Notes: generated by a model from the letters alone, not told the origin. A DNA stretch of 64,000 nt from Chloroflexota bacterium (GCA_963662335.2 CAXXVD010000001.1:416001-480000); one strand, 5' to 3'. Shown: positions 1 to 49,811, counted from the first letter of the stretch. A program made the numbers and translations.

Positions 1-8
1 CCGCAACA

Positions 9-1067
9 ATGGCGCATACTATCTTCGGCCTGGAGCGTGGCGCGCTCTACGCTATCCAACTGAACTACCTCACCGACGACGGCTGGGTCTTCTCCGCCCG
101 CGACGCCTACGTCTGGCCCTCAGGAGTTCAGCCGGGTCCGGGCAAGAGAGTGGCAGGCTATCCGTTTGTGGGCCATTTTCCCAGCAGAACCTACACGTAC
201 AGCATCTGCAAGGACACTTTCCATGACACGAATGACACGATTCGAATTGCTTGGGCAGACCTCATTGAGCATGCGTTGGGGCAATGGCAGAAGGCAACCG
301 GCGGTTTCATTTCGATGGTGCGTTCAAATGCAACATGCACAACCTATCCGGAATTTACTCCTACCACTAAGCCCATAGACTGGTGGGTTGAGATTAGCAG
401 CAGGCTGGGTGGAGACGACGGGTTAAGTGAAGTACGCATGGTGGATCCGCCATCTCCAGGCGAACAGGTGCAAGGTTCCTTTATTGAGATGCTTCTAACG
501 GATCCCTTTAAAGCGTGCATTTTGTACCCAGATTTTGTAGCCTGCGCTAGTTCGCATTCCGGCTTCCTAGCACCTCGCCAGCAGGCCAGCACCACTTTGC
601 CGAGTGCAGACATCATCTTCAACCATGATGTAATATATGCTCCCCCAATTGCCACCCCTACTATCGGTCCCAACAAGCCTGACGATGTTGTCTTTAACTC
701 ATGTGTGGACAAATCCACGCTAAGACCCGATCTAGATGATAGCCAGCATCAAGCCTATGCAGCAGCAGTGCATGAGGCGGGACACGCGTTAGGTCTATCA
801 GGGGGACTGCCGTGGAACATTACTTTCGCGCTAGTAGCCTCGGTGCTGACAGCCTACCAGCCACCTGCAACACCGATTAACATCCCATCCGACATTGTGC
901 AGCAGGTATATGAGGCGTCACATGCAGGTACAACCGATGCGGCTATGAACTACGACGAGCACGCAGGAGAGCAAGAGCCAGATTGCGCGCCGCATCCGTT
1001 AGACGTGCTGGCGATCATGGCCTTGTATCAATCGGCGCCAACGCCGACACCGACTCCCTCTCCCTAG
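9..1067 (+). CDS. Zinc metalloprotease (metzincin-like) C-terminal portion; probably 5'-truncated by the window edge
   Basis: HEAGHALGL zinc motif, downstream H...AAMNY Met-turn-like segment and EPDCAPHPLD tail. The frame is open to the window start and is collinear with the second half of the 9310-11263 paralogue. Confidence 0.8.
   Translation: MAHTIFGLERGALYAIQLNYLTDDGWVFSARDAYVWPSGVQPGPGKRVAGYPFVGHFPSRTYTYSICKDTFHDTNDTIRIAWADLIEHALGQWQKATGGFISMVRSNATCTTYPEFTPTTKPIDWWVEISSRLGGDDGLSEVRMVDPPSPGEQVQGSFIEMLLTDPFKACILYPDFVACASSHSGFLAPRQQASTTLPSADIIFNHDVIYAPPIATPTIGPNKPDDVVFNSCVDKSTLRPDLDDSQHQAYAAAVHEAGHALGLSGGLPWNITFALVASVLTAYQPPATPINIPSDIVQQVYEASHAGTTDAAMNYDEHAGEQEPDCAPHPLDVLAIMALYQSAPTPTPTPSP
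27..124 (+). repeat. 98-bp conserved block shared with 10237-10334 (GLERGxLYAIQLNxLTDDGWVFSARDAYVWPSG)
   Basis: Manual alignment gives 6 mismatches in 98 nt; DNA identity falls off soon after. Confidence 0.9.
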
Positions 1068-1086
1068 AGTTGAAGAAGGAACGATC

Positions 1087-3141
1087 ATGTGGAATCGAAT
1101 TAAGGTCGTCGTGGGCTTGGCGGTGCTGGGAAGCGCACTGCTGCTAACGGGGTTGAGTTGTGATGGGCCGCCATATCCGCCGAATGACATTTCTCCTCAT
1201 CCAACGCTCACTTGGTCGCCGGACGGGAAGCACATAATCTTCTCGCCTATAGGTTTGGGGGTCTTTGTGATAGATGCTGCAGGTACGCGCTTGTGGACTT
1301 TTCCTGAGAACAATCCGCTTGGTGACGAATACCTCCCTGGCAACGCCGTGCCGGCGCTCTCTCCCGATGGGTCTCGGATTGCGTTTGTCATGCTCGGGAG
1401 ACGTCACCAAGCAGCGATTTACACGGCAGCGCTCAATGGGACAGCACTACGCAGGCTGACAGATCACGAGGGCTTTTCTTCGAACCCGGTGTGGTCGCCG
1501 GACGGGAGCCGAATCGCCTACACATCAGGTGATAGAGTTGTGCATCTGAAAGTCATGGACGCAGATGGCTCAAACGATCGGATACTCGCGTCGGAGGTTA
1601 GCCTTGAACCGTATCCATTCGGACGACCACCGGAGTGGTCGCCTGACGGTAAGTGGATTGCGTTTGTGAGCCAGGGCGAGAGGAGCGATGAGGAAGGATT
1701 TCTCCTAACTCTATACACGGTCCGGCCGGATGGGTCGGAGTTGAATAGAATAGGGGAACTTGCTCAATGGTGGTTGGACTTGTATAGCAATTCTCCTGTG
1801 GAGAGCACTCCTGTTCTTCGAGGCCCTCCAAATACTAGTATCAGAATCTGGGCCCACATGTGGCGGTGGGCGCCCGATAGCAGTCGGATTGCATTAATCG
1901 GCGCAAGTGAAGTGGATGATGAGGGAAAACAGCGAAATCTCCTCTACACGGTGCGTCCAGATGGGTCAGAACTCACCAGAGTAGCAGAGGCGCATAGTCT
2001 ACCGGTTTGGTCTCCCGACGGCAGCAGTCTTGCTTTCGTGGGCACTGAGGTGGGTAGGGAAGAGGCGCGCCACGACATTCTATACACGGTCCGGCCAGAT
2101 GGGTCTGGATTGACCAGAATAGCCGACATGCTTGGCACGGTGCAGTTGTACGATTCAATAGATAACTTACTGGGCGAGGTTCATGCTTCACCGGCGTGGT
2201 CGCCGGACGGAGAGTGGTTAGCATTCTCAAGGGGTGTTGACGAGGAACGCAGCATCTACGTAGCGCGGTCCGATGGCACGGACCTGCGCAAGCTAGTTCA
2301 TGGGCACAGCAGTCCGGTTTCGTGGTCCCCAGATGGAACGGAGATCTTCTTTCAGGGTATGGAATACGCTGTGCTGGCGGACGGCAGCGGCATGCGCCGC
2401 ATGTTGCAAGACCAGGCACCAAGCCTCTTGACAACGTGGTCCCCGGATGGCTCGCAACTGGCTGTACTTCTCGGCTCACGCAATGGCAGGCATAAGCTAA
2501 TATCAGCGCCCCAAGAGGTGCTATATACGATCACGCGAGACGGAATCGTGAAGCGACTGTTGGTGCGAGGAGATCCGCTACTTCTCGTAGCGGAGCACTC
2601 CAATTGGCGCGATGTGACTAACGATATCGCGTCCTGCGCGGATGGCTACGTTGTGCCGCATGCGGAAACGAATAAGAAACTAGTGCTAGATTGCGAGACG
2701 CTGCTGGCAATGCGGGAAGTGCTCGCCGGAGAAGGTTTTCTGAGCTGGAGCGCCACTGTCCCTATCGAAAACTGGCGCGGTGTCACGGTCGAAGGCTCTC
2801 CAGGTAACCCCTCGCGGGTTACAAACCTGTATCTCACTGACCTGGGACTTACTGGCACAGTGCCGCCAAGACTAGCTGACCTCACCGCGCTGAAGTCCTT
2901 GAATCTCGCAACTAATGCTCTAACAGGAAGCATCCCGCTTGAACTCGCAAACCTTGAAAACCTAGAGTACCTGAACCTCTCAAACAACAACTTGGATGGC
3001 ACCATTCCTCCTGAGTTGGGAGAGCGTGTCAACCTGAGGAGACTGTACCTCCAAGGAAACAACCTAACGGGATGCGTGCCAGCAGCGTTATCCGACCGCT
3101 TGACAGAACTCAAAACCGATGGCTTGGAATACTGCGAGTGA
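1087..3141 (+). CDS. Lipoprotein: TolB/PD40 beta-propeller + ~4 plant-type LRRs (paralogue 1)
   Basis: Signal peptide with GLSC lipobox-like Cys; many WSPDG repeats; DCETLL..LSW..W.GV cap; LxLxxNxLxGxIPxxL repeats; ends GLEYCE; AAGGA RBS upstream. Confidence 0.85.
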   Translation: MWNRIKVVVGLAVLGSALLLTGLSCDGPPYPPNDISPHPTLTWSPDGKHIIFSPIGLGVFVIDAAGTRLWTFPENNPLGDEYLPGNAVPALSPDGSRIAFVMLGRRHQAAIYTAALNGTALRRLTDHEGFSSNPVWSPDGSRIAYTSGDRVVHLKVMDADGSNDRILASEVSLEPYPFGRPPEWSPDGKWIAFVSQGERSDEEGFLLTLYTVRPDGSELNRIGELAQWWLDLYSNSPVESTPVLRGPPNTSIRIWAHMWRWAPDSSRIALIGASEVDDEGKQRNLLYTVRPDGSELTRVAEAHSLPVWSPDGSSLAFVGTEVGREEARHDILYTVRPDGSGLTRIADMLGTVQLYDSIDNLLGEVHASPAWSPDGEWLAFSRGVDEERSIYVARSDGTDLRKLVHGHSSPVSWSPDGTEIFFQGMEYAVLADGSGMRRMLQDQAPSLLTTWSPDGSQLAVLLGSRNGRHKLISAPQEVLYTITRDGIVKRLLVRGDPLLLVAEHSNWRDVTNDIASCADGYVVPHAETNKKLVLDCETLLAMREVLAGEGFLSWSATVPIENWRGVTVEGSPGNPSRVTNLYLTDLGLTGTVPPRLADLTALKSLNLATNALTGSIPLELANLENLEYLNLSNNNLDGTIPPELGERVNLRRLYLQGNNLTGCVPAALSDRLTELKTDGLEYCE

Positions 3142-3189
3142 CGCAAGATTGCGCTTGGTGCAGAGATGGAACTAGACCATGAATTGGCT
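3116..3189 (+). repeat. 74-bp direct repeat shared with 4956-5029 (gene end plus intergenic junction)
   Basis: ccgatggcttggaatactgcgagtga(c/t)gcaagattgcgcttggtgcag(a/t)gatggaactagaccatgaatt(g/a)gct; 3 mismatches. Confidence 0.9.
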
Positions 3190-3279
3190 GAACAACAAAG
3201 CAAACTCAAAGAGCCAGATTGCGCGCCGTACCCGTTGGACGTGCTGGCGATCATGGCGCTGTATCAATCGGCGCGGTAG
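3166..3279 (+). pseudogene. Relic of metalloprotease 3' end (37-aa open frame MELDHELAEQQSKLKEPDCAPYPLDVLAIMALYQSAR)
   Basis: Translated by hand; nearly identical to the EPDCAPHPLDVLAIMALYQSA tail of ORF 9-1067. Confidence 0.85.
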
Positions 3280-3295
3280 CAAGCGGAGGAACTTG

Positions 3296-4981
3296 ATGAA
3301 ATCAAAGGGAATCCTAGTTGCTCTGACGTTACTCGGGGGCGTGTTGCTTATAGGCTTGGCGGCAGGCTGTTACCCCGTAGAAGAGGAATATCGCGACTAT
3401 CAAGAGACAAGACTCTTCTGGTCGCCGGACGGCAGGCACATAATTCTTGCGCGTGACTTTACAGGGATTTTTGTGATTGATGAGGCAGGGACGCGACTGC
3501 GTACTGTCGATGGAGGCTGGGCGACTGGTGGATCACTGTCTTCAGCCAGCTTTGGGGCGACACTATCCCCCAATGGGTCGCGCATAGCGTACGTTGAGGA
3601 ATTGCGCTCCAACGACCTAGCCATCGTAACAGTGGCCCTGGACGGCACCGACAAGCGCCGCCTTACACCCATTGGCGCCAAAGAATCACTAAACTCCAAC
3701 CCTGTGTGGTCACCCGACGGACTGCAAATTGCTTTCACATCGGATGCAAGGCTCATGGTTATGGATGCGGACGGGTCGAACCTCCGAATGCTGGCGCCGT
3801 CCGTAGGGCTGGAGGAACGACCAGCGGGCAGGGGACAACCACCGGCGTGGTCGCCTGACGGCAGTCGCATCGCATTTGTAGGCGCTGCAGCGGATTACGA
3901 TGAAGGCTACGAGTTCACGCTCTACACAGTGCAACCGGATGGGGAAGAGCTAGTCGCTATAGGAAAACTGGCACTCAACTGGGCGTGGTGGTGGTCCCCT
4001 GACGGCAGTCGCCTCGCACTCTTGGCTGCGGAGATAGGTGAAGCAGGTGAGCGCGGCGAAGTCCTCTACACGGTGCAACCTGACGGGTCCGACTTGGCCA
4101 GGATAGGGGAAGGCTTCGTTCAACCGGCGTGGTCACCGAACGGCGCGTGGTTGGCATTCGTGCAGAAAAGTGCAGAAGAGAGCAGCGTCTACATCGCAAG
4201 ACACGACGGCTCGGACGTGCGGCAGGTTGCTCGTGGCTATGGGGGGCCGATTTCATGGTCGCTGGATGGCACCGAATTGTTCATTGAAGGATTAGCGTAC
4301 GCGGTGCGATCCGATGGCAGCGGTCTACGCCAATTGGTTCCGGGCGGGATAGGTGGACTGTTTGCCTGGTCTCCCGACGCTTCGCGGCTTGCTGTCTTCA
4401 CCGGTATTTCCGATGATTTCCAACAAGAGGTGGTCTTTACGCTCTCCCGAGACGCGACGGAAAAGCGTGTACTAGTGCGGGGTAATCACAGCGGTCTAGT
4501 TGCGGAACACTCGGATTGGCGTGATGTGTCTCGTGCCAGCGAGGCGTGTGCACAAGGACCTGCCGTGCCGTATCCCGATACAAACTCGGCATTGGTGCCG
4601 GACTGTGAGACGCTGTTAATGCTACGGGACAAGCTGGCCGGAGACGCCTTTCTGAACTGGAGTGTCGCCGTTCCCATAACTGCATGGCAAGGAGTCCATC
4701 TTGAAGGCTCACCAGGAAACCCCTCGCGAGTTACAGGTCTTCTTCTTGATGATGTAGGCCTAACCGGTACCATCCCGCCAGAGTTGGGCAATCTCACCGG
4801 CCTACAGCGGCTAGACCTCAGCAACAATGACCTGAGGGGTGACGTCCCACCGGAACTGGGCGATCTCTTCGCTCTCCAGGTCTTGTATCTTCACGGAAAC
4901 TCTCTGACTGGGTGTGTACCCGCGGTCCTCTCTGATCACTTAAGGGTAATGGAGGCCGATGGCTTGGAATACTGCGAGTGA
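3296..4981 (+). CDS. Lipoprotein: TolB/PD40 beta-propeller + ~3 LRRs (paralogue 2)
   Basis: Start moved to ATG 3296 (GGAGG RBS; MKSKGILVALTLLGG...LAAGC lipobox); WSPDG repeats; LRRs; ends GLEYCE. Confidence 0.85.
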   Translation: MKSKGILVALTLLGGVLLIGLAAGCYPVEEEYRDYQETRLFWSPDGRHIILARDFTGIFVIDEAGTRLRTVDGGWATGGSLSSASFGATLSPNGSRIAYVEELRSNDLAIVTVALDGTDKRRLTPIGAKESLNSNPVWSPDGLQIAFTSDARLMVMDADGSNLRMLAPSVGLEERPAGRGQPPAWSPDGSRIAFVGAAADYDEGYEFTLYTVQPDGEELVAIGKLALNWAWWWSPDGSRLALLAAEIGEAGERGEVLYTVQPDGSDLARIGEGFVQPAWSPNGAWLAFVQKSAEESSVYIARHDGSDVRQVARGYGGPISWSLDGTELFIEGLAYAVRSDGSGLRQLVPGGIGGLFAWSPDASRLAVFTGISDDFQQEVVFTLSRDATEKRVLVRGNHSGLVAEHSDWRDVSRASEACAQGPAVPYPDTNSALVPDCETLLMLRDKLAGDAFLNWSVAVPITAWQGVHLEGSPGNPSRVTGLLLDDVGLTGTIPPELGNLTGLQRLDLSNNDLRGDVPPELGDLFALQVLYLHGNSLTGCVPAVLSDHLRVMEADGLEYCE

Positions 4982-5005
4982 TGCAAGATTGCGCTTGGTG
5001 CAGTG

Positions 5006-5124
5006 ATGGAACTAGACCATGAATTAGCTAGGACAAAAGGGGCTTTAAGGAACCGGATTGCTCACCGCATCCGCTGGACGTGCTGGTGATTATGGCCCTG
5101 TACCAGTCGACGACACCACCATAG
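5006..5124 (+). pseudogene. Second relic of metalloprotease 3' end, frameshifted (..KEPDCSPHPLDVLVIMALYQSTTPP*)
   Basis: Hand translation from 5050; same tail motif, out of frame with the upstream ATG at 5006. Confidence 0.8.
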
Positions 5125-5137
5125 GGAGACGAACGCA

Positions 5138-7033
5138 ATGAGGTTGTTGAAACTGAATCTGCGCAAGGTTAGGGTAGGCCTAGTCTTGCTGGGAAGCGCG
5201 CTTCTCATGGCTTCTTCCCCGGGGGCCTGCGGTAGTAGCACCTCTGAATCGCCATTCCCGGCAGCATTCACTGGGGCCCCGAGTGTGGCCTACTTAGCTG
5301 AGGTTCCAAGTCTACTGTGGTCGCGGAACAGCGAGCACATCGTCTTCTCAAGGGGTTTACACGGGGTCTTCGTGGTAGACGCGGCAGGGAGGCGCTTGCG
5401 GGCCTTTCCCGAATACGCGCCGACAGTCGGAGACTATTACAACCCGGGGGCATTTGCCCCGGCGCTCTCTACCGATGGGACGCGAATGGCGTATAGCGTG
5501 TTTGTACCGACCAACGGCGCCCAAATCGAGACTGCAGCGTTCGATGGGTCTGACGTGCAACGGGTGACAACTTTCCGAGATCTCGATGGTGACGGAAGGA
5601 CCGATACCGTCCAAAATACGAATCCGGCTTGGTCACCGGATGGAGAAAAGATCGCCTTTGTTTCAGACCGCAGACTCTCCACTATGGCTGTGGATGGGTC
5701 AAACGCGCGGACACTCTCGCTCTTGGTAAGACTCGATCGACATCAGTCACCTCATTGGTCGCCGGATGGCACTCACATTGCGTTTGTCGGCTTCGACAAG
5801 GAATACAACCCTGGCTTTTACACGGTTCGGCTCGATGGCTACGAACTGACCCGCTTGGCGGATGCCCGTGCGTCCTCTGTAGCGGCCCCGGTGTGGTCGC
5901 CGAATGGCGGTTGGCTTGCGCTCGCCACTGTTGAAACCGACGCCGAAGGAACTAAACACGATGTTCTCTATACGGTGCGACCGGATGGGTCGTTCCTAAC
6001 CAGAGTAACACCTACAGATTATGGCGGCTCCGTGTTCGCGTGGTCGCCTGACGGCGACTGGTTGGCATTTTCGAACGGTCAGACAGTCTATGTCACGCGA
6101 CCCAATGGCGCCGAGTTGCGGCAGGTGGCAATTGGCAATGGCGTACCGCTGGTGTGGACGCCGGATGGAGAAGAAATCCTCATCAAAAGGCTAGGCCACG
6201 CTGTGCGGGCGGACGGCGGCGGGTTACGCGAGTGGGTTTCGGGCGGCGTGCCAGGCATTGTGCGAACCGCGTGGTCCCCCGACGGTTCGCGGCTAGCCGT
6301 TCTATCCGCTCCTGAGAGCCATAGCCTAATGCTGTATACGATAGCGCGAGACGGGATGGACAAACAGCTAGTGGCACGGGGAGGTGGAAGTCGCTTGGTT
6401 GCGGAGCACTCGGATTGGCGCGATGTGTCCGATGACATTGCAGCCTGCACGGAACAATATAAGCGCAACCCAGCCTTGGTGGAAGACTGCCAGACGCTGC
6501 TGAGCATACGCGATACATTGGCCGGGGAGACCCTTCTGAACTGGAGCGCTGACGTTCACATAGGGGACTGGGAAGGGGTCTCAATTGAAGGTGGCGAGGG
6601 AGCCGACCTTCGTCCGCCGCGCGTTCGGAAGTTGGTGTTATCAGGGGAGTATTCTCATGCGTTTATTACAGGGGTAATCCCACCAAAGATAGGCGCCCTT
6701 GGCGAGTTGGAGTTCTTGAACCTATCAAGAAATAGCTTGACCGGCGGCATCCCGCCAGAGTTGAGCATGCTCAGTAAGCTGGAGACGCTGTATCTCGAAG
6801 ACAACAACCTTACGGGCAGCATCCCGCCGGAACTAGGGAACCTTGCGAGCCTGAAGTACCTATCCCTCAGTGGCAATACGCTCAGCGGAGACGTCCCGCC
6901 GGAATTGGGCAACCTGGAGAACCTGAGAACGTTAGAACTTCACCGCAACTACGACCTGAGCGGCTGTGTGCCTGCCGTGCTAGCCAGCCGCTTGACTCAG
7001 GAGTATGGCACTGGCTTGGAATACTGCGAGTGA
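5138..7033 (+). CDS. Lipoprotein: TolB/PD40 beta-propeller + ~5 LRRs (paralogue 3)
   Basis: Signal peptide with GAC; WSPDG repeats; LRR cap and repeats; ends GLEYCE. Confidence 0.85.
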   Translation: MRLLKLNLRKVRVGLVLLGSALLMASSPGACGSSTSESPFPAAFTGAPSVAYLAEVPSLLWSRNSEHIVFSRGLHGVFVVDAAGRRLRAFPEYAPTVGDYYNPGAFAPALSTDGTRMAYSVFVPTNGAQIETAAFDGSDVQRVTTFRDLDGDGRTDTVQNTNPAWSPDGEKIAFVSDRRLSTMAVDGSNARTLSLLVRLDRHQSPHWSPDGTHIAFVGFDKEYNPGFYTVRLDGYELTRLADARASSVAAPVWSPNGGWLALATVETDAEGTKHDVLYTVRPDGSFLTRVTPTDYGGSVFAWSPDGDWLAFSNGQTVYVTRPNGAELRQVAIGNGVPLVWTPDGEEILIKRLGHAVRADGGGLREWVSGGVPGIVRTAWSPDGSRLAVLSAPESHSLMLYTIARDGMDKQLVARGGGSRLVAEHSDWRDVSDDIAACTEQYKRNPALVEDCQTLLSIRDTLAGETLLNWSADVHIGDWEGVSIEGGEGADLRPPRVRKLVLSGEYSHAFITGVIPPKIGALGELEFLNLSRNSLTGGIPPELSMLSKLETLYLEDNNLTGSIPPELGNLASLKYLSLSGNTLSGDVPPELGNLENLRTLELHRNYDLSGCVPAVLASRLTQEYGTGLEYCE

Positions 7034-7079
7034 CGGCAAGACTATGGTGGATCACATTCTGCATCGAGGCAAGTCAGAG

Positions 7080-9287
7080 ATGCCGCGGTTGAGATACGCG
7101 CTCCGGGTCTTGAGCTTCCTGGGGCTGCTCCTTCTCGGTCTGGCTGCCGCGTGCGGCGGCCAAGGGGATAACGATCACGATAGGCGTAAGAATGTAGATT
7201 CGCCCGTGGCCGGGACTCTGGCGCCGCCCCAGGTTAGCGATCCAGACGCACCGCAGGACACACAGGTCCAGGCCTCTAGCGATGCAAAAGCAGGCAGTCA
7301 GCCCTGCTCTGAGGATGCGGGGGAATCTTGCAGACCTCGCGAGGTCAGCGGCCTCAACCTCTTCGAGCCAAGGCCGCCGGCAGCCGGGTACTACATCCAG
7401 TCCGATGCCGACAGTGTAGAGGCAGTCCTGGAGAAAGGCCTGCGGTTGGCGGAGGCGTCTCCAGTGCACATCGCAATTCGCGGGAGAACAGCGGGTAGTA
7501 CCTTCCGCTGCGCGTGGCGCGGCGTAGCCAGAACCGCCGGCCAGCGAGAGCGGGCGGTCCGTTACTGGTTGGGTTTGGCCGCTACCGATGCCCTGCCGTC
7601 GGCGACCGAGGTCGAACGCCGGTTCATGCAGTCGATCAACAACGCAAGCCTCCAATTTCTGGAAACTGAGAAAGCGAACTTCAAGACTTTGGCTCGTGGC
7701 GGGTTGACGACCGAATACCTCTTCCTGACCTGCTACGCCGACTACGCCATCCGGGAATACTTGCTGGGCGCGGGGCCGTCCACTCTGACCGTGGCGTACG
7801 ACCACATGGCGGAAGCTCGCTCCTACGACCTCTACAAACGCGCGCACACGGCGGGCGAATTCGGCAACACGGCCCTGCTGGGCAAAAGCGCCTACCAGGT
7901 TGCGCTGGAAAACGCCGCGTGGGCCGTTGAGTCGTCGCTGAGCGCCATCGTGGGGGACCGCCAGACCGTGGTCTTCCTGGCTCCTATGGCTGCGCATCAT
8001 GCCATTGCCATCGAGGCCTGGCAGGCGATCGACCAGTGGGACGTGCAGTTGGTGAACGGCACGCTGAACGCGGTGCGCTTCGGGGCCTATCCCGGCGATC
8101 CGGAGCACACCCAATCGCTGAACAACCTGCGCAACCGCGTCACCAGCGCGGCGAGCACGGACTCCTTTGCCGGCAAGCGCATCGGCAACGTCAGCGGCCT
8201 GCGCACGTACTATACCGACATCGGCGCGTACGGCGACATCACACCCGACGACGGCAAGACCGATACCTTCACCCCCAGCCAACCGCCGCCGGTGCTGCCC
8301 TGCGAGAACGGCACCGCCGTCCCGAACCCCAGCGCCAACCCCGGCCTGGTCTTCGATTGCCGCACCTTGCTGGGGCTGAAGAGCACGCTGGCCGGTTCCG
8401 CTACCCTGAACTGGAGCGGCAGCACGGCTATCACCGCGTGGGACGGCGTGCTGGTCGGCGGCTCGCCCCAGCGCGTCAACCGCCTCTCCCTGAACGGCAA
8501 GCAACTGAACGGCCGCATCCCGCCTGAGCTCGCCAACCTCACCAAACTCCACTTCCTCTACCTGCGGAACAACCGCCTGCAGGGCGCAATCCCGCCGGAA
8601 CTGGGCAATATGGCCGAACTCCAACACCTCTACCTGAACCAAAACTGGCTCACCGGCGCCATCCCCGCCGAACTCGGCAACCTGGCCAATCTCACCCGCC
8701 TCTTCCTGGACCGCAATCAACTCTCCGGCGCCATCCCCAAAGAACTCGGCGGCATGGCGAGACTCCATCAACTCTACCTGAACCACAACCGCCTGACCGG
8801 CAGCATCCCGAAAGAATTGGGCAACCTGAGCAAACTCTGGTACCTCTACCTGGAACACAACGAACTGACCGGCAGCATTCCCAAGGAACTGGGCAAACTG
8901 TCCATCCTCACGCGGATGGACCTCTACGACAACCGGTTGAGCGGCGCCATCCCCAAAGAACTGGGCGGCCTGACACTGGTCACCCGCCTGGACCTGAGCA
9001 AGAACAAACTCACCGGCGCCATTCCCCCGGAACTGGGCACTATGGCCAAGCTGGAGTTCCTCTACCTGCACTGCAATGCGCTGACCGGCACAATCCCCGC
9101 CGCCCTGGGCAACATCACCACCCTGCGGGAACTCTACCTGCTGGGCAACACGATCACCGGCGACGTCCCCGCCACCCTCGCCGGCGTCGACGTGCGCACG
9201 GGCGCGTCGTCGGTCTGCACCTCGGTTTCCCCAACTCCCACGCCGTTCCCCACGCCGACGCCGACACCCACGCCCGCCTCCGGCTGA
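7080..9287 (+). CDS. Lipoprotein: unrecognised N-terminal domain + ~10 plant-type 24-aa LRRs + Pro/Thr tail
   Basis: LAAAC lipobox after a hydrophobic stretch (start 7080, alternatively 7044); regular LxxLYLxxNxLTGxIPxELG repeats at ~8470-9180; PTPTP tail. Confidence 0.85.
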   Translation: MPRLRYALRVLSFLGLLLLGLAAACGGQGDNDHDRRKNVDSPVAGTLAPPQVSDPDAPQDTQVQASSDAKAGSQPCSEDAGESCRPREVSGLNLFEPRPPAAGYYIQSDADSVEAVLEKGLRLAEASPVHIAIRGRTAGSTFRCAWRGVARTAGQRERAVRYWLGLAATDALPSATEVERRFMQSINNASLQFLETEKANFKTLARGGLTTEYLFLTCYADYAIREYLLGAGPSTLTVAYDHMAEARSYDLYKRAHTAGEFGNTALLGKSAYQVALENAAWAVESSLSAIVGDRQTVVFLAPMAAHHAIAIEAWQAIDQWDVQLVNGTLNAVRFGAYPGDPEHTQSLNNLRNRVTSAASTDSFAGKRIGNVSGLRTYYTDIGAYGDITPDDGKTDTFTPSQPPPVLPCENGTAVPNPSANPGLVFDCRTLLGLKSTLAGSATLNWSGSTAITAWDGVLVGGSPQRVNRLSLNGKQLNGRIPPELANLTKLHFLYLRNNRLQGAIPPELGNMAELQHLYLNQNWLTGAIPAELGNLANLTRLFLDRNQLSGAIPKELGGMARLHQLYLNHNRLTGSIPKELGNLSKLWYLYLEHNELTGSIPKELGKLSILTRMDLYDNRLSGAIPKELGGLTLVTRLDLSKNKLTGAIPPELGTMAKLEFLYLHCNALTGTIPAALGNITTLRELYLLGNTITGDVPATLAGVDVRTGASSVCTSVSPTPTPFPTPTPTPTPASG
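9080..9287 (+). repeat. ~208-bp segment duplicated at 13215-13422 (last LRR + PT tail)
   Basis: Near-identical DNA and protein (TIPxALGNITTLRELYLLGNTITGDVP..ASG*); weaker similarity continues ~40 bp past the stop. Confidence 0.9.
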
Positions 9288-9309
9288 ACCGCGGCCTAAT
9301 CAACTGCTC

Positions 9310-11263
9310 GTGCGCTTGGAGACCAACGTCATGGTCACTCCCACCGCCCAGACCAGCATCACCGTCAGTTGGGATACGGACACCGCGGTCGCCACCTACA
9401 AGTTGGAGCGCGCCATCGCCGTCACGCCCACGGCCACGCCCGCGTGGACGCAGGTTGCCGTCGTCACCCCAGCCCCGAGCTCCACGACCACAAGCTACCC
9501 GGACCCCAGCCGGAGTTGCGGCACGGCCTACCTCTACCGCGTCAGCGCCATCGGCGACGGCACAAACTACAGTAAGTTCGAATACGGCGACCCGTCACAA
9601 CCGGAACCGGCCAGCACCGACTACTACTGCACGCCGCAGGATCTCACCATCATCCCAATGCCGCAACGTAAAGCGGAGTTGTGTTGGGGCGCCGTGAATG
9701 GCGCGACGTACACAGTGCAGGTGCGCAAGCCGAGCGGGAATTGGCCAACGCCTATACCCGGCGGTACCGTACCTAATGAGCAAGACAAAGGAACGAGTAC
9801 CTCCTATGAGATCAAATTGGATGAGGTTTTCAACGCTGGCACAGTAGCGGCGCCGACCCCTGAAGGCCTCGCTCATGCCACGGCCTACCAACTCCGCGTG
9901 CGCGCAAAAGTGGCTGGCAAAGACTACTACAGCAAGACGATTACGCTCAGAGATAGTCCGATCGTCAGGGTGAACGGACACAGCCCAGGTACTGGTGCCA
10001 ATACCGGTAAGGCAGTCGTCACGTGGAAGCCGCCCAGCGGAGCTACGGCATACTACGTGCGCTGGCGGAAACTTGGGCGCGACAAAGACTCTAACCTCCA
10101 TACGAGTCCAAATTGGCAGTTGGACAGCAAGTCTCTCTCGGCAACTGCGTTTGATGGTACGCCCACACCCACGCCTCTGGCCGTTCCCTCTCCTTCACCC
10201 ATTCCCGCTGACCAAACTGTGGAACACGAGATCATGGGCCTCGAGCGCGGCACGCTCTACGCTATCCAACTGAACTTCCTCACCGACGACGGCTGGGTCT
10301 TCTCCGCTCGCGACGCCTACGTCTGGCCGTCAGGCGCCATACTAGCCCCGGGTAAGAAAGTGGCAGGCTATCCCACATTCGGTCACTTTGCGAGCAAGAC
10401 CTACAAGTATAGAATCTGCAAGAGCACATTTCCTTTGGGCGAGGAGGACGCTTGGGCTTTGCTCATTGAGGATGCGCTAATGCGGTGGCAGAAGGCAACC
10501 AATGGCTTCATAACCATGATGCCTGAACACTCGAGTACTCACACCCCGTCAAGTCCTCAGTATAAACCGTGTTCAAATCTCTCAGTCCCACTGTTTCTTG
10601 TCTCGGTGATGTTTAGCGCAAATCCAGACAATGCGCTGAGCGAGATACGTATGATAGATCCTCCAAATGATTTGGCAGGACTATCATCTATGCGCGAGAT
10701 GATTTTCGATCCTTACAAGCTGTGCATCTTACGCAGTGCAGCGTGTGTCACGTCTGTTTCCGGTTACACGACTTTACATAACCCCATCGTCGGTGGCGAG
10801 GTGCCAAGTGCGGACATCACTTTCAATCAGGATGCGGAAGGGGAAAATCGTAGCAACACCAACGACAGTTGAATTTGGTGCATGCATAGGCGATTCCGGA
10901 CCGGTTTACAACGACAACACAGGGAAATTCTATGTATATGCAACCACCGTTCATGAAGGCGGACACGCTCTAGGACTATCGGGCTGGTCGCCTATTGCCT
11001 CACTAAACACGGCACTTGTAGCAACAATTAGACTAATCTTGAAGGCATATAACCTCCTCCCGTACCCAGACATACCTGAAGAGATAGTTCTGGTTCTTAC
11101 AGACCCTAAAGCAATGAGGGAGTATTCGGCGGCGCATCCGCGCACTGTTGACTCTGTATTGAACTACGACAAATATGCGGGATTGCCCAAGGGTGAGCCA
11201 GATTGCGCACCACACCCGCTGGACATTATGGCGATTCACGCAATATACCAGTCGGTGCGATAG
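9310..11263 (+). pseudogene. FN3-like repeats + zinc metalloprotease, split by a +1 frameshift near 10840-10847 (ORFs 9310-10872 and 10736-11263)
   Basis: FN3-like motifs (TSITVSW, YLYRVSA, YTVQVR, YQLRVRA, YYVRWR). Homology to ORF 9-1067 switches frame at a GGGGAAAA run and continues to HEGGHALGL and EPDCAPHPLDIMAIHAIYQS. Confidence 0.75.
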
Positions 11264-11303
11264 TCAGCGCAGCGGCACTTTGAGGGCCCTCGGGAGATGG
11301 GCG

Positions 11304-13052
11304 ATGAAAAAGCACCTGAAACGGATTGCGGCTGACCGGATCCTCTTTGGCGCGTTACTGGTGAGCGCAATGCTTGCCTGTAGCGACAATGAATTCCTGT
11401 CACGTGAGGTTGAGATTAACGCGACTCACGTACAGTCAAGGCCGGTCTGGAACCCAGATGGGTCGCATATAATCTTCTCTCGGTATACGGGAGGCTACAT
11501 CGTTGACGGCCTATACATTGTTGACCGCGAAGCCACGCAATTGCGGACCATGATTTGGGACGCTTTCAATCCAAGCAATTTTTCACCTTCGCTTTCTCCG
11601 GATGGCTCGCAGGTGGCGTTCGTTTCAATGCTGGGAAACAATGCAGAGATTGTAGTGTCAGGAATGGATGGCTCTAGCGTGCGTCGACTTACTGACCAAG
11701 CTGTCGACGCTGAACACGACGGTATCGAGACGAACCCGGCGTGGTCCCCAGACGGCAGCCGCATTGCCTTTACTTCTAATCGAAGACTAACCGTCATGGC
11801 TCCGGATGGGACGAGTCTCCAGGCCCTCGTGCCCTCGGTTAAGTCACTGGGCTATCCACCGGTGTGGTCTCCCAACGGCAGTTGGGTTGCCTTTGTGGGC
11901 ATTTATGGAAGGTATGATGAGCAAGCTCGTTTTCCCCTATACGTGGTGAGGTCGGATGGATCCGGACTCAGGGAACTTGCGGACACGGTTAGCGTGCCGG
12001 CATGGTCACCAGACAGCAGCCAAATCGCCTTCTTCATACTGACTGAAGAAAGTGCGGTACTGTATACAATGGCCAGAGATGGCAGCGAGGCCAAGGCACT
12101 GTTGTCTATCGACAAGTCGAACCTCGAGGGTTCCCTCAGGTCTGCGAAATCCTATGGGGAAGTACTGTACAGTTCGCTTTCGTGGTCGCCGGACGGCACA
12201 GCGCTCCTCTTTGCGTCTGAACATGCCCAAGGACATGTTGTCAGCGCAAGGGATGGGAGCATACTTGCCGACATAGAGCGGGGCTGGGCAGAATGGTCGC
12301 CCGATGGTTCCCGCATTGCCGTCCATGACCTACCGCACAGAGACTTTGACTTTCACGCCTTTAGAGTCGTTCTGTATACCATGGCTCGAGATGGGTCGGA
12401 TAGACGAATACTTGTGCGTGGGACAGCCAAACATCTAGTTGCAGAAAACTCTGATTGGGAGGACATATCGACAGACATTGAGGCGTGCGCAAAACACCAC
12501 CCTCTGGCCCGGGGCATGGCAGAGGACTGCCGGACGCTGCTGAAACTACGTAATGCGTTGGCCGGGGAAGGGACCCTCTTAAATTGGAAAGGCGATGTCT
12601 ATCCGCCAACTTGGGAAGGAGTCTCGGTAGATGGTACGCCAATGCGTGTCAGAAAGCTAGTGTTTTCGCCATCATTTCAGCCTACGTTGAGAGGCACCAT
12701 GCCGCCGGAGTTAGGCAATCTCAAGGAGTTAGAGATCTTGAACTTTGGCACGAACAGTCTTACGGGCAGCATTCCGGCAGAGTTAGGAAACCTTACCAAG
12801 CTGAAGTGGCTAATACTTGATGGAAATCATCTTACAGGAAGCATTCCACCCGAGTTGGGAAACCTTGCTAATCTGCAAGTTTTAGATCTCAGCAACAATG
12901 CGCTGAGTGGGAATATCCCACCAGAGTTAGGAAATCTAGAAGAATTGAAAGAGTTGTACCTCGACGGCAACAACCTGACTGGCTGTATACCGGCAGCCCT
13001 CTCTGTTCGCTTGATTAACTTCCGGACAGATGACTTAGACTACTGCGAGTGA
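11304..13052 (+). CDS. Lipoprotein: TolB/PD40 beta-propeller + ~5 LRRs (paralogue 4)
   Basis: Start ATG 11304 after GGGAG; MLAC lipobox; WSPDG repeats; LRRs; ends DLDYCE. Confidence 0.85.
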   Translation: MKKHLKRIAADRILFGALLVSAMLACSDNEFLSREVEINATHVQSRPVWNPDGSHIIFSRYTGGYIVDGLYIVDREATQLRTMIWDAFNPSNFSPSLSPDGSQVAFVSMLGNNAEIVVSGMDGSSVRRLTDQAVDAEHDGIETNPAWSPDGSRIAFTSNRRLTVMAPDGTSLQALVPSVKSLGYPPVWSPNGSWVAFVGIYGRYDEQARFPLYVVRSDGSGLRELADTVSVPAWSPDSSQIAFFILTEESAVLYTMARDGSEAKALLSIDKSNLEGSLRSAKSYGEVLYSSLSWSPDGTALLFASEHAQGHVVSARDGSILADIERGWAEWSPDGSRIAVHDLPHRDFDFHAFRVVLYTMARDGSDRRILVRGTAKHLVAENSDWEDISTDIEACAKHHPLARGMAEDCRTLLKLRNALAGEGTLLNWKGDVYPPTWEGVSVDGTPMRVRKLVFSPSFQPTLRGTMPPELGNLKELEILNFGTNSLTGSIPAELGNLTKLKWLILDGNHLTGSIPPELGNLANLQVLDLSNNALSGNIPPELGNLEELKELYLDGNNLTGCIPAALSVRLINFRTDDLDYCE

Positions 13053-13098
13053 CGGCTGGACGGTGAAATACAACCCACTGCATCAAGGCAGGCTTCAA

Positions 13099-13422
13099 AT
13101 GCTGCGTTCGGAAGTATTGCTAAAGGGCGTTTGTTTGCTTGGGCTGCTACTGCTGGGGTTCTTTGCTGGCTGCGGCAAGCGATCCTCTGACGACCTCGTT
13201 GATCGGGAAGGGATGCTGATCAGCACAATTCCCGTTGCGCTGGGCAACATCACCACGCTGCGGGAACTCTACCTGCTGGGCAACACGATCACGGGGGACG
13301 TGCCCGCCAGCCTCGCCGGCGTCGACGTCCGCACGGGCGCGTCGTCGGTCTGCACGTCGGTCTCCCCAACACCCACGCCGTTCCCCACGCCGACGCCGAC
13401 ACCCACGCCCGCCTCCGGCTGA
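13099..13422 (+). pseudogene. In-frame internal-deletion derivative of the 7080-9287 LRR lipoprotein (signal peptide fused to last LRR + PT tail)
   Basis: LLGLLLLGFFAGC signal matches the 7080 gene N-terminus and joins at ~13215 to its last ~68 codons. Confidence 0.75.
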
Positions 13423-13628
13423 GCCTCGGCCCGACGTGCTTCTCGTGCGCTTGGCGGTCAACGCCCGGGTTGGGGTGAGCACTCTTGTCAATCTGGACAG
13501 GCATGCCGCGAACCGGCCGGCCGCGCGCATTCCTCAAGTTGACAACGCTGCCGCCAGCGCCTATGTTCAAGTGCGAGTACAGGGCTTGGCCCCGGCAGAC
13601 TAAGTCCCCCTTTTAGAAAGAGCGCGCT

Positions 13629-14915
13629 ATGCCACGCATGACATTCACCGTCCGCGCCGGTAACCACGTCCGGCGGCACTGTCCGGTCTGGGTCAAGGCT
13701 GCGGGGCTCGACCCGGCCCGCGACTATGCGGTCGTTTCCCGTGAGAGCGGTGCGGCGCTGCCCGCGCAGGCGGTGGCTACGCCGGGCGGCGTCCGCTTGG
13801 CCTGGATTGTGCCCGCGCTGGTCGCCAATGCGTCGCAGACCTTTACGCTGGAAGAAGGCGGGAAGGGCAGCCGGATGGATTCCCGCTTTCGCGGGAATGA
13901 CGGTCCGGATTCCGGCCCGCGCGGGAGTGACGGCGTGGACGCCCGCCCGCGCGGGAATGGCGGCGTGGATTCCCGTTTTCACGGGAATGACGCTGGGGTG
14001 AGCGTGGCTGACGGCAGATACGGGTTGGACGTTATGCTCGACGGCGCGCTCTTCACCACCTATCACCACGCCGCCGCGCACAACAAGCTCTTCCTCTACC
14101 CGCTGATCGGCCCCACCGGCAAGGGCATGACGCGCGGCTATCCTATGGTGTCGGACATCCCCGGCGAGAAGCACGACCATCCGCACCACAAGTCGATTCA
14201 CGTGGCCCACGGCGACGTGAACGGCGTGGACCTCTGGAGCGAGTTGGACGACCACGGCTACCAGCGCCATGAATCTTTTCTGCCGGCCTTTGGGGTTGGC
14301 GATGCCTATGTGAGCGGGCCGGTCTGCGGTGCGTTTCGTTCGCGCAGCCTGTGGGTGAGCCGCGCCGAGCAGCCGGTGGTGACGGAGGAGAAACACGTGG
14401 TAGTCTACGCCCCGGCGCCGGACGCCCGCATCCTGGATGTTTCCGTGACCCTGCGCGCCACGGAAGGCCCGGTGCGCTTTGGCGATACCAAAGAGGGCGC
14501 GATGCTCTCGGTGCGCGTGGCCAGCAGCATGGACGCGGACGACGCCGGGCGCTACGAGAACGCCTACGGCGGCACGGGCGAGGATGAGTGCTTCGGCAAA
14601 CGCGCCCAGTGGCTGGACTACACCGGCCCGGTGGACGGCGCGACGGTGGGCCTGGCGGTCTTCGACCATCCCGCCAACTTCCGCGCCCCCACCTACTGGC
14701 ACGTGCGCGACTACGGCCTGGTGCACGCCAATCCCTTCGCCTGGCGCGAGTTTCTCGGCCACCCCGGCCTGGACGGCAGCTACGTCCTGCCCGAAAGCGC
14801 GCGCCTGCGCTGCAAATTCCGCGTCTACCTCCATACGGGCAATACGCAAGACGCCGGGGTGAAAGAGCGGTACCATGACTTTATCACCCCGCCGGCGGTG
14901 GAAGTATCCGAGTAG
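13629..14915 (+). CDS. PmoA-like/DUF6807-type beta-sandwich protein (not particulate methane monooxygenase)
   Basis: LYPLIGPTG..TRGYP..DHPHH, FGDTKEG, DHPANFRAPTYWHVRDYGL motifs. Confidence 0.7.
   Translation: MPRMTFTVRAGNHVRRHCPVWVKAAGLDPARDYAVVSRESGAALPAQAVATPGGVRLAWIVPALVANASQTFTLEEGGKGSRMDSRFRGNDGPDSGPRGSDGVDARPRGNGGVDSRFHGNDAGVSVADGRYGLDVMLDGALFTTYHHAAAHNKLFLYPLIGPTGKGMTRGYPMVSDIPGEKHDHPHHKSIHVAHGDVNGVDLWSELDDHGYQRHESFLPAFGVGDAYVSGPVCGAFRSRSLWVSRAEQPVVTEEKHVVVYAPAPDARILDVSVTLRATEGPVRFGDTKEGAMLSVRVASSMDADDAGRYENAYGGTGEDECFGKRAQWLDYTGPVDGATVGLAVFDHPANFRAPTYWHVRDYGLVHANPFAWREFLGHPGLDGSYVLPESARLRCKFRVYLHTGNTQDAGVKERYHDFITPPAVEVSE
13877..13996 (+). repeat. Four tandem 30-bp palindromic units (GGATTCCCGC-N4-GCGGGAATGAC type) in frame within the CDS
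   Basis: Period 30 nt; encodes DSRFRGNDGP DSGPRGSDGV DARPRGNGGV DSRFHGNDAG. Confidence 0.9.
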
Positions 14916-15373: not shown

Positions 15374-16498
15374 ATGGCCTTTGTCGATGAAGTGCGCGCA
15401 CTCTCATGCGCCCTTGTTGAGAAACTAGACTATCTCGCCACCGAAGAAGCCACCAAAGTAGCGCTTGTGCTGCCATTCATTCAACTCTTGGGCTACGATA
15501 CTCACAATCCGACCGAGGTCGTGCCGGAGTTTACGGCTGACGTGGGGGTCAAGAGAGACGAGAAGGTAGATTACGCGCTGCTGCAAGACAGCGAGCCCGT
15601 GGCGCTCTTCGAATGCAAGACTTACGGTACCGCCCTCAATGAGAAGCACGTATCTCAACTCATGGGTTACTTCTCCAACACGGACGCACGCTTTGGCGTC
15701 CTCACTGATGGCATCGTCTATCAGTTCTTCGCAGACCTTGTCAAGCCTAACCTAATGGACAGTGAGCCATTCTTTGAATTCAACATGCGGGACTATACCG
15801 AAGCGCAGGTCGAAGAACTAAGGCGTTTCACGAAGTCGGGTTTCCGTGTCGAAGCGAACATCGAAGCCGCGAGAAGACTGAAGTACACCACAGCGATTAA
15901 GCGGGTCCTTACTCAGGAGTTTGCAAATCCTTCAAAGGAGTTCGTGAAACTCATCGTGCGACAGGTATACGAGGGAAAGCTGGTCCAAAAGATTCAAGAG
16001 CAATTCGATCCTCTTGTGAGGCGGGAGTTGGCGCATTTCGTCGCAGAAGAGATACCCACGCCACAGCCAGTCCCGCCTGACGTGAAACCCGACCCACCAA
16101 AACCGCTTCCTCCACCTGTGCCCGGGGAATGGTGCCCTTTGTCAGCCCTGAATCCGGCTAAGGGAGACCCCAAGCCAACCGGCATACGGTTCCCGGATGG
16201 TTCTCACCGGCCCATCAAGAATTGGAGTGATCTGATGGTGGAAGTCGCCGGCTGGCTCATCCGAGAAGGGCACATGGATAGGCAGGCTTACAAAGTCAGG
16301 CGCAGCAATCGCAGCAAACACTTTCTAGTCGCCACTGAACCTATCCACGCGAGTGGCAAGCCGTTCAAGCGACCGCATCAAGTGGAATCGCTATACATTG
16401 AGGGGAACTACAGCGCGCCTAACCACGCTAAGAATACTCAATTCGTCATTAAGCACGTTGGCCAAGACCCGGCGGAGTTTTCGGTGCGTTTCGATTGA
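15374..16498 (+). CDS. Stand-alone type I restriction enzyme R N-terminal (HSDR_N-like) PD-(D/E)xK nuclease protein
   Basis: TEEATK..LPFIQLLGYD..P.EVVPEFTAD..KVDYAL..ECK..QL..YF..GVLTDG motifs; Pro-rich linker; separate C-terminal domain. Confidence 0.8.
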   Translation: MAFVDEVRALSCALVEKLDYLATEEATKVALVLPFIQLLGYDTHNPTEVVPEFTADVGVKRDEKVDYALLQDSEPVALFECKTYGTALNEKHVSQLMGYFSNTDARFGVLTDGIVYQFFADLVKPNLMDSEPFFEFNMRDYTEAQVEELRRFTKSGFRVEANIEAARRLKYTTAIKRVLTQEFANPSKEFVKLIVRQVYEGKLVQKIQEQFDPLVRRELAHFVAEEIPTPQPVPPDVKPDPPKPLPPPVPGEWCPLSALNPAKGDPKPTGIRFPDGSHRPIKNWSDLMVEVAGWLIREGHMDRQAYKVRRSNRSKHFLVATEPIHASGKPFKRPHQVESLYIEGNYSAPNHAKNTQFVIKHVGQDPAEFSVRFD

Positions 16499-49676: not shown

Positions 49677-49694
49677 GTCATGAACTCCAGCAGG

Positions 49695-49811
49695 TTAGTG
49701 CGACTGATAGATTGCAAAGATGGGCATGCTGTGAATGAGACTTGGCGAACAGTCATGTGCAACTACACCTGTAACGGAGGGATCGTTCTTAATCGAGTCA
49801 GCGATTGATGG
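49695..49811 (-). pseudogene. Decayed metalloprotease 3' end (PSIADSIKNDPSVTGVVAHDCSPSLIHSMPIFAIYQSH*)
   Basis: Hand translation of the minus strand; aligns with PRTVDSVLNYDKYAGLPKGEPDCAPHPLDIMAIHAIYQSVR* of the 11263 protease. Confidence 0.7.

Follow-up and report, generated by a model that had tools for sequence, protein, structure and literature searches.

The window analysed here is a stretch of 64,000 nucleotides from an uncultured Chloroflexota bacterium (GCA_963662335.2, CAXXVD010000001.1:416001-480000; G000:C1:416001-480000 in our numbering), whose genome, G000, comprises 3.23 Mb in 5 contigs at 64.5% G+C. At its left end the + strand carries a run of co-oriented, closely spaced genes for collagenase-like zinc proteases, for lipoproteins with a PD40 beta-propeller and for lipoproteins with leucine-rich repeats (LRRs), which we delineated by listing of open reading frames (ORFs), translation and Pfam. 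By comparing G000 with 13 other genomes we were able to define the true unit, which consists of a protease gene, one or more genes for PD40 propeller lipoproteins and a closing gene for a lipoprotein that joins a conserved N-domain, here called Ndom, to LRRs. G000 holds three such units in tandem, with the closing gene of the last one gutted, and the content of the window is two and a half units of this lineage-specific, recombining three-gene surface cassette. An earlier interpretation made from the sequence of the window alone (the sequence-only reading) gave the gene order as we find it, and its description of the genes as co-oriented and tightly packed is borne out by the + strand ORFs. 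However, it placed the array at positions 1 to 13460, whereas the array is cut by the window, begins 9.5 kb upstream and totals 23 kb. It also took an LRR lipoprotein for the opening gene of the system; this gene instead closes the unit in the three G000 units and in other genomes, and its conserved 340-residue N-domain had been missed.

Upstream of the window, the first element is a protease of 1662 residues with a signal peptide, a Pro/Thr linker, about ten FN3 repeats and the same catalytic domain, after which come a PD40 lipoprotein without LRRs, an LRR lipoprotein of 738 residues and the start of protease A. The gene of protease A begins about 816 nt before the window, and positions 1-1067 (ORF 3-1067) encode its C-terminal 354 residues, with FN3 repeats and a catalytic domain, predicted to be matrixin-like, that contains HEAGHALG; it has no signal peptide. 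Only 20 nt after its stop codon lies the first of four genes for lipoproteins that combine a PD40 beta-propeller with plant-type LRRs (1087-3141). The second (3296-4981; likely start MKSKG, lipobox AAGC) and the third (5138-7033, defined by its ORF and Pfam) each follow a stump of the 3′ end of a protease gene, one at 3160-3276, ending in KEPDCAPYPLDVLAIMALYQSAR and a stop codon, and the other at 5032-5124, reading FKEPDCSPHPLDVLVIMALYQSTTPP up to its stop codon. Neither stump has a start codon, and stop codons lie upstream of both. The unit is closed by a lipoprotein of 760 residues (7005-9287; likely start 7080, lipobox AAAC), laid out as a linker, Ndom (residues ~100-440), about ten 24-residue LRRs and a Pro/Thr tail. 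Protease B comes next (9331-11263), with a GGAG ribosome-binding site, the start MVTPTAQ, the sequence HEGGHALG and no signal peptide, followed by the fourth propeller-LRR lipoprotein (11304-13052; likely start MKKHL, lipobox MLAC). The array ends, at the right edge of the island, with an internally deleted unit-closing lipoprotein and the first ~25 nt of a protease start (13063-13470, all features being on the + strand); the deleted copy (13063-13422) still has a signal peptide, the last LRR and the Pro/Thr tail, and matches the final 68-69 residues of the intact copies at 93-94% identity. Pfam matched PD40 and LRR repeats in 4/4 propeller genes of the window, LRRs in the 760-residue protein and fn3 in protease B. 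A lipobox pattern is present in six of the eight lipoprotein candidates, and the remaining two have a hydrophobic segment and then a Cys.

Protease B spans two frames of the window (9310-10872 and 10736-11263), with the frame change near 10836. Contigs of three public runs, from one study and possibly from the source sample, read two additional letters after 10836 at full depth, and with these the frames join; the break is thus probably an assembly error or a strain variant. None of the public runs listed is of RNA. In relatives, several cassette genes are likewise read in two or three frames: a PD40 gene at L015 11291-12664, a protease at L031 15261-18950 and an Ndom gene at L030 7345-8192. 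These splits may also be errors, given that the break in protease B has the look of an assembly error. We also considered that a programmed frameshift or read-through might fuse the LRR lipoprotein with the protease, and found no support for it. The protease frame is indeed shifted by +1 relative to that of the lipoprotein in each of the three copies, and it has no stop within the Pro/Thr linker, but the protease has its own GGAG and ATG, and the lipoprotein frame ends in TGA with a TAA four codons further.

The association that defines the cassette is that of protease and propeller. A PD40 gene lies directly after 29 of 32 full-length proteases in 13 genomes, on the same strand (G000, 3/3; L013-L030, 22/23; L004, 1/1; L010, 2/2; L008, 1/2; L003, 0/1), with the edges of the two ORFs -175 to +47 nt apart. 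Propellers are not favored in this count, since it was matches to the protease that served to retrieve the loci. Starting from the propellers, a protease 3′ tail is found directly upstream of 12/12 PD40-family genes of G000, five of them in the island, six in a second array (C1:612.8-621.7 kb) and one at window 48408-49694 (-); ten of the tails match at E<=1e-10, and two are weak (E 0.019 and 0.56) but at the expected spot. The protease and the propeller thus form a conserved module, and a common occurrence of propellers without a protease or protease relic upstream, which would have spoken against the sequence-only reading, is not what we find in G000. The gene at 48408-49694 is a lone PD40 lipoprotein gene without LRRs, 35 kb from the island, and its weak nhmmer match to the protease tail lies directly upstream, at 49701-49754 (E 0.56 genome-wide). 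We also considered TolB as an identity for the propellers. Because they score 137 and 75 bits against TIGR02800, under its equivalog cut-off of 343, and have PD40 repeats (PF07676) at E 1e-21 to 1e-39, we describe them as PD40-repeat propellers and not as TolB. Finally, the distances among proteases and those among their propeller partners are correlated (Mantel r=0.62; 0/5000 permutations as high), a result that is not decisive for cognate pairing because co-inherited neighbors correlate anyway.

Truncated proteases occur as well. The two stumps of the window are 91% and 82% identical to the tail of protease A over 57 nt. Across genomes, stumps always reach the end of the protease and their 5′ cuts vary, from residue 451 to residue 607 of protease A, and arrays of stumps with PD40 genes occur at six loci (L002, L015, L017, L018, L031 and L032). 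L002, the second array of G000 (G000:C1:610001-624000, outside the window), has six PD40 lipoprotein genes and no full-length protease, each gene standing behind a protease-tail stump of 32-78 codons or a decayed trace. The genome of a relative, G008, is 97% complete; the matches listed for it comprise six stumps and no full-length protease, and it retains six intact propeller genes all the same. At these six loci, PD40 genes without LRRs end in ...GNLxPANPPQEG[SP] before the stop codon, and the DNA of this C-terminus, GGAGG...GTGATGA, provides a ribosome-binding site and an ATG that overlaps the stop. The next ORF, be it a stump, an Ndom gene or a protease, starts at this ATG, and many stumps start exactly there. 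The trains of orphan modules that the sequence-only reading cited for polymorphic toxin loci thus have a counterpart here, in 5′-truncated protease pieces together with propeller genes, also in a genome in which no full-length protease was found.

To judge how the stumps evolve, we counted differences by codon position. Among nine tails of G000 there are 158, 68 and 372 differences at positions 1, 2 and 3, and between two stumps of the second array 0, 0 and 7. Three stumps of ~90 codons in G008 and one in G005 have a 5′ boundary in common, M[NSY][FY][GS]SFNP..., and all retain HEAGHALG together with the third His, the Met-turn and the tail; their pN/pS values run from 0.13/0.38 to 0.28/0.59, and pairwise dN/dS is 0.17-0.36 at dS 0.5-1.6 by a Nei-Gojobori count on 71-90 codons that is near saturation. 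Degeneration is evident in some tails, such as LICWPHPFD and YALCETK. The codon patterns indicate that truncated catalytic halves have persisted under purifying selection across a speciation. Given this pattern of selection, the ~90-codon stumps would be either translated mini-proteins or orphan cassettes whose fitness is maintained by exchange with full-length genes, and they fit orphan modules better than debris.

The array also bears the marks of recombination. In G000, a block of 1.6 kb is 90-97% identical in DNA between units 2 and 3; in the window it runs from 8054 to ~9650 and covers the last part of Ndom, the LRRs, the Pro/Thr linker and the 5′ ~340 nt of the protease gene. The flanks of the block are 60-70% (Ndom), 35-70% (protease) and 30-50% (propeller) identical, and its junction recurs at the deleted copy of the third lipoprotein. 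We regard the block as a candidate homology anchor for recombination. In P0003, a protease from another genome, identity is nearly complete over the first ~130 residues and falls to 42% overall. The sequence-only reading had proposed a recombining array of paralogs strongly diverged inside but sharing near-identical junction DNA. Both points agree with what we find: the propellers of the window are 35-43% identical to one another, the junctions correspond to the 1.6-kb block and the protease 3′ stumps, and the array is a mosaic. At window 9000-9700, public contigs show several alternative joints and a higher summed depth over the Pro/Thr linker and protease 5′ block, a pattern that either related strains or a repeated, recombining segment would produce.

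Between different cassettes, even among congeners, 43-66% of the residues of the nearest catalytic domains differ, whereas the DUF6807 gene that flanks the array is 79-85% identical among the same genomes; to judge by these alignments, the cassettes are far more diverged than the flanking genes. In G005 and G007 the two flanks of the island lie ~3.7 kb apart with no cassette gene between them, and in G001 and G003 there are no cassette genes upstream of DUF6807. The array therefore sits in a strain-specific island that none of the four relatives examined has at this site. The genes of the island have 52-59% G+C compared with 64.5% for the genome, except for the LRR lipoprotein (63-64%). Among the matches listed for the 17 genomes of the genus, full-length proteases occur in at least eight, tails only in three and neither in six. 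In a sample of the phylum, in which at most five candidates per genome were scored, at least 24 of 401 genomes had a match, and these belong to 4 of 217 genera and to three families of one class.

Just beyond the island, two genes deserve mention. The DUF6807 gene (13629-14915, +) has N-terminal repeats, SRFRGNDG..., at about residues 80-120, which are unmatched in the orthologs of G001, G003 and G006, where alignments split at residues ~79 and ~115-122, and aligned throughout in G005 and G007; the stretch may be an in-frame insertion of a repeat element. The gene at 15374-16498 (+), in a stretch of 53% G+C, encodes N-terminal domains of the restriction-endonuclease-like kind (HSDR_N, HSDR_N_2 and a weak Mrr_cat), and part of it is also present in G005.

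The protease belongs to a rare family. A search of 5.8 billion proteins returned 35 at E<=1e-3, including the window's own two, and the relatives come from metagenome-assembled genomes of Dehalococcoidia/Chloroflexota. Among 15-24 relatives, HExGHxLG shows no or almost no variation at its H, E, G, H, L and G, and the same is true of a downstream His, of several Cys and of the C-terminal motif EPDC[SA]PHP[LF]D..AI.ALYQ, which we take to resemble the last helix of the catalytic domains of matrix metalloproteinases (MMPs). Together with the fn3 match in protease B and the FN3 repeats in protease A, the HExGHxLG motif upholds the earlier description of an FN3 metalloprotease. We were able to parse 23 of 24 sequences for motifs and loop lengths. 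Two of them have the canonical metzincin spacing HExxHxxGxxH, while the others, A and B included, have inserts of 8-46 residues before the third His, which then lies 10-48 residues past the Gly. A Met-turn motif [VIA][ML]x[YH] (SVMNY, AAMNY, SVLNY; consensus DSVMxY) stands between the third His and the C-terminal helix in 17 of the 23, and the stretch from Met-turn to tail varies from 5 to 26 residues. Two loops that flank the active site are thus strongly variable in length. The earlier claim that the zinc protease is exported is supported for the 1662-residue copy upstream and for 9 of 23 relatives, which have a Sec signal peptide, and not for A and B, which have none.

An AlphaFold model of the protease of moderate quality (pLDDT 65, pTM 0.70) was compared with known structures. 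The top 13 Foldseek matches were all MMP catalytic domains, at weak E values (0.025-0.1) with a best probability of 0.95. In VIA, residues 37-325 of the model matched MMP-9 with Z 8.9 (root-mean-square deviation (rmsd) 3.5, 148 aligned, 22% identity), MMP-2 with 8.8, MMP-12 with 8.7 and MMP-20 with 8.4, identity to MMPs being 19-24%, and after the MMPs came serralysin, astacin, snapalysin and ADAMs. The catalytic domain ends at its own last helix, with no further domain behind it. A profile search of the PDB with the protease alignment returned FN3 proteins only, because the alignment rows contain FN3 repeats. One relative, P0015, carries a precomputed PF00413 label. As a Pfam and NCBIfam scan of the catalytic parts of the window proteases gave no match, PF00413 (Peptidase_M10) included, we read the protease, from its motifs and predicted fold, as a putative new metzincin family nearest the matrixins and not as a member of M10A.

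Ndom is the best conserved part of the cassette (about 50% identity across genomes) and is by no means confined to it. An exhaustive HMMER search returned 496 representative clusters, 264 of them at E<=1e-30. We scanned 25 Ndom proteins. In these, Ndom stands at the head of chains made of LRR, FN3, cadherin and Ig-like domains, and in five (P0041, P0045, P0051, P0063 and P0068) a PD40 propeller is fused in front of it, with LRR, FN3 or cadherin domains behind. Within 41 related genomes, which are not independent samples, Ndom occurs together with a protease or tail in 12, a protease or tail occurs alone in two (G004 and G007) and Ndom alone in one (G040); of the 27 places with an Ndom, 22 have a protease or tail match no further than about 6 kb away. 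The Ndom-LRR gene belongs to the cassette. By sequence, Ndom found no relative in PDB sequences, Pfam, NCBIfam or the protein atlas, and there was no TIMP (tissue inhibitor of metalloproteinases) or NTR (netrin) match at E<=10 in PDB sequences or, for 30 Ndom members, in Pfam. Its predicted structure is confident (pLDDT 90.2, pTM 0.88). Foldseek found no match for it in the PDB, and in VIA 10 of the top 11 matches were OB modules of the netrin/TIMP type, at Z values around the tool's stated background of 7-8 (agrin NtA, 8.0, with rmsd 3.1 over 107 aligned; N-TIMP-3, 7.0; complement C345C, 6.6; TIMP-1, 6.0). TIMPs are defined by a free N-terminal Cys that chelates the catalytic zinc and by three conserved disulfides. 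Ndom begins ~50-100 residues after the lipobox Cys, away from any free N-terminus, and has only two invariant Cys in 30 sequences. As the likeness lies in fold matches, without sequence similarity, a free N-terminus or the TIMP cysteine pattern, we rejected membership of the TIMP family, and Ndom reads as a predicted OB/NTR-like fold whose best matches are at marginal Z.

Taken together, the genomic behavior of the cassette matches that of polymorphic effector-partner cassettes well, so the genomic data lend the sequence-only reading partial support; what we infer beyond it is that the partners bind, that the propeller inhibits and that the system acts against other cells. The mechanism that is most likely combines a secreted matrixin-like protease with a cognate surface-anchored propeller that would act as its inhibitor. 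In this scheme the first gene would encode a zinc endopeptidase that is exported and combines an FN3 stalk with a matrixin-like catalytic domain, the active site of which is bordered by two loops of variable length, the first leading from HExxHxxG to the third His and the second from the Met-turn to the last helix. The second, tightly coupled and downstream, would provide a lipid-anchored PD40 beta-propeller, with or without C-terminal plant-type LRRs, and the third a closing lipoprotein with a conserved OB/netrin-like N-domain and LRRs. The propeller would bind the variable C-terminal half of its own protease, most likely blocking its activity at the surface of the producer, and would thereby act as a cognate inhibitor or immunity protein. 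Pieces of the C-terminal part of the protease, truncated at the 5′ end and each with a propeller gene, would accumulate downstream as orphan modules and would be exchanged with full-length genes through the 1.6-kb LRR/5′-protease block, the FNxC...HEAGHALG stretch and the 3′ tail, giving rise to new specificities. We hold this view of the propeller, as the inhibitor or immunity partner of a recombining protease/propeller/Ndom cassette, tentatively and at a little under an even chance.

Polymorphic toxin systems are the obvious comparison. Like contact-dependent inhibition (CDI), Rhs and MAF loci as described in the 2012 survey, the cassette has a variable C-terminal domain, a partner immediately downstream and trains of 5′-truncated pieces with partners (PMC3482391), as well as conserved upstream homology for recombination, an island location and a presence that varies among close relatives (PMC3482391). 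The same survey includes metallopeptidases among toxin domains and a single immunity family that is a lipoprotein (PMC3482391). The cassette differs in its stalk, made of FN3 repeats with a Sec signal at most, and in that the putative toxin would be an extracellular matrixin-like protease and the partner a large beta-propeller lipoprotein. We saw neither TpsA, Rhs or LXG nor any other trafficking domain in the cassette proteases, secretion-system genes having been looked for at the loci only. A parallel to the proposed inhibition is found in Tannerella forsythia, whose KLIKK peptidases, among them the MMP-like karilysin, are each reported to be linked to and co-transcribed with a lipoprotein, a potempin, that inhibits its own peptidase specifically and protects the surface of the producer (PMC9890683). 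The pairing of a secreted metzincin with a TIMP-like lipoprotein in Listeria is a second published precedent (PMC8235301). The cassette shares the linkage and the lipoboxes with this system and, by inference, perhaps inhibition. Potempins have 98-132 residues, are encoded upstream of the peptidase and in some cases form five-stranded OB-fold barrels (PMC9890683); it is the OB fold class of some potempins that the predicted Ndom core most resembles. In contrast, the tight partner in the cassette is a PD40 propeller of ~450-650 residues encoded downstream, and the cassette adds a third lipoprotein (740-760 residues), a single protease family and arrays of stumps and partners.

Several observations weigh against the propeller as a cognate immunity protein. 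By the time of the 2012 survey, beta-propellers had not turned up among the immunity proteins of polymorphic toxins (PMC3482391), and ~450-650 residues is unusually large for such a protein. The stump beside each propeller is the most conserved part of the protease and not the most variable one, so recombination at the stump would part partners and not keep them together. Nearest neighbors in the protease and propeller trees agree in only 7 of 24 cases, and of the co-variation foreseen by the sequence-only reading there remains the distance correlation, which co-inheritance would produce as well. One locus, L003, has a full-length protease followed by an Ndom gene and no PD40 gene. Proteases A and B, lacking signal peptides, may be non-exported orphan copies behind the complete upstream gene, and the fusions of PD40, Ndom, LRR and cadherin or FN3 domains point to a general surface-protein toolkit. 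Prediction of a complex between the catalytic domain of the 1662-residue protease and the neighboring PD40 lipoprotein scored 0.00 in both runs, which were made without controls, and weighs neither way.

Instead of inhibiting the protease, the propeller could be a part of it. In a heteromeric surface protease, the PD40 lipoprotein would serve as membrane anchor and exosite subunit and the Ndom-LRR protein as regulator, with subunit interfaces and substrate ranges diversifying together. Animal membrane-type MMPs are served by a hemopexin propeller, and the strict adjacency of the two genes, a catalytic domain that stops at its last helix, its matrixin-like predicted fold and the TIMP/netrin-type best structural matches of Ndom would all suit such an enzyme. 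Nevertheless, propeller genes outnumber proteases in the arrays, and the six intact propeller genes of G008 are hard to explain as anchors without an enzyme; their retention therefore favors an immunity-like role over an anchor role. We consider the heteromeric protease conceivable, but doubtful.

It is also unlikely, in our view, that the locus is simply a hypervariable surface-protein island under phage or adhesion pressure, with the protease as a linked enzyme of maturation or shedding and no variant-specific inhibition. This explanation would account for the strain-specific occurrence and atypical G+C of the array, and it draws on the hundreds of LRR, FN3 and cadherin proteins headed by Ndom and on the existence of PD40-Ndom fusions. 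It has a precedent in Listeria monocytogenes, where a secreted metzincin, Mtz, is reported to be encoded beside a TIMP-like lipoprotein, Tim, which it cleaves and releases (PMC8235301). The Listeria pair resembles the cassette in that a metzincin gene adjoins the gene of a TIMP-like lipoprotein, a likeness that for the modeled Ndom is marginal. According to that report it is a single conserved, phage-derived pair with a CI/Cro-like switch (PMC8235301), and the pair as described there has no propeller partner, LRRs or arrays (PMC8235301). What the surface-protein island leaves unexplained is the protease 3′ stump at every propeller gene and the purifying selection on truncated catalytic halves.

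A further possibility, to which we assign a low probability, is that the cassette is a split-gene bacterial counterpart of a well-known animal triad, with a library of stumps swapped into the full-length protease to switch specificity. In animals, the triad is made up of the matrixin catalytic domain of MMPs, the beta-propeller of the hemopexin domain and TIMP, and the cassette offers a predicted matrixin-like fold, a beta-propeller partner and an Ndom whose best fold matches are of the TIMP/netrin type. The stumps would then be silent or mini-gene cassettes under selection, carrying the active-site helix, the third His, the Met-turn, an S1′-type loop and the last helix; swapping a stump together with its matching propeller would change both the substrate of the enzyme and the surface inhibitor that neutralizes it, and the OB/netrin-like Ndom lipoprotein would be a second, TIMP-like regulator. 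The cassette differs from the triad in that its parts are separate, lipid-anchored gene products and its propeller is of the PD40 and not the hemopexin kind, and Ndom differs from TIMP in its position, its cysteines and its sequence. That there is no system at all, and only tandem duplication of a protease-propeller pair followed by decay with the stumps as debris, is very improbable, since the missing start codons and upstream stop codons of the window's two stumps and the degenerate tails are outweighed by the bias of differences toward third codon positions, by the low dN/dS of stumps with a common boundary in two genomes, by stumps that are still recognizable beside propellers only 30-45% identical, and by the same layout in 13 genomes.

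We found no description of the protease/propeller/Ndom architecture in the open-access papers and preprints searched. If the propellers are cognate inhibitors, they would represent a new structural class of partner protein for polymorphic effector-immunity systems, and an extracellular matrixin-like protease would be a new type of effector, in a little-studied and mostly uncultured phylum. Should the resemblance to the animal triad hold, the cassette would be the first case of a beta-propeller lipoprotein serving as immunity partner in a polymorphic effector-immunity system. Ndom is a large unannotated family, with 496 representative clusters, no Pfam model and a confident predicted structure. 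Moreover, the cassettes form a natural set of proteases with different active-site loops and, for each variant, a matched candidate binder, which would be useful for studying how the specificity of proteases and their inhibitors evolves.

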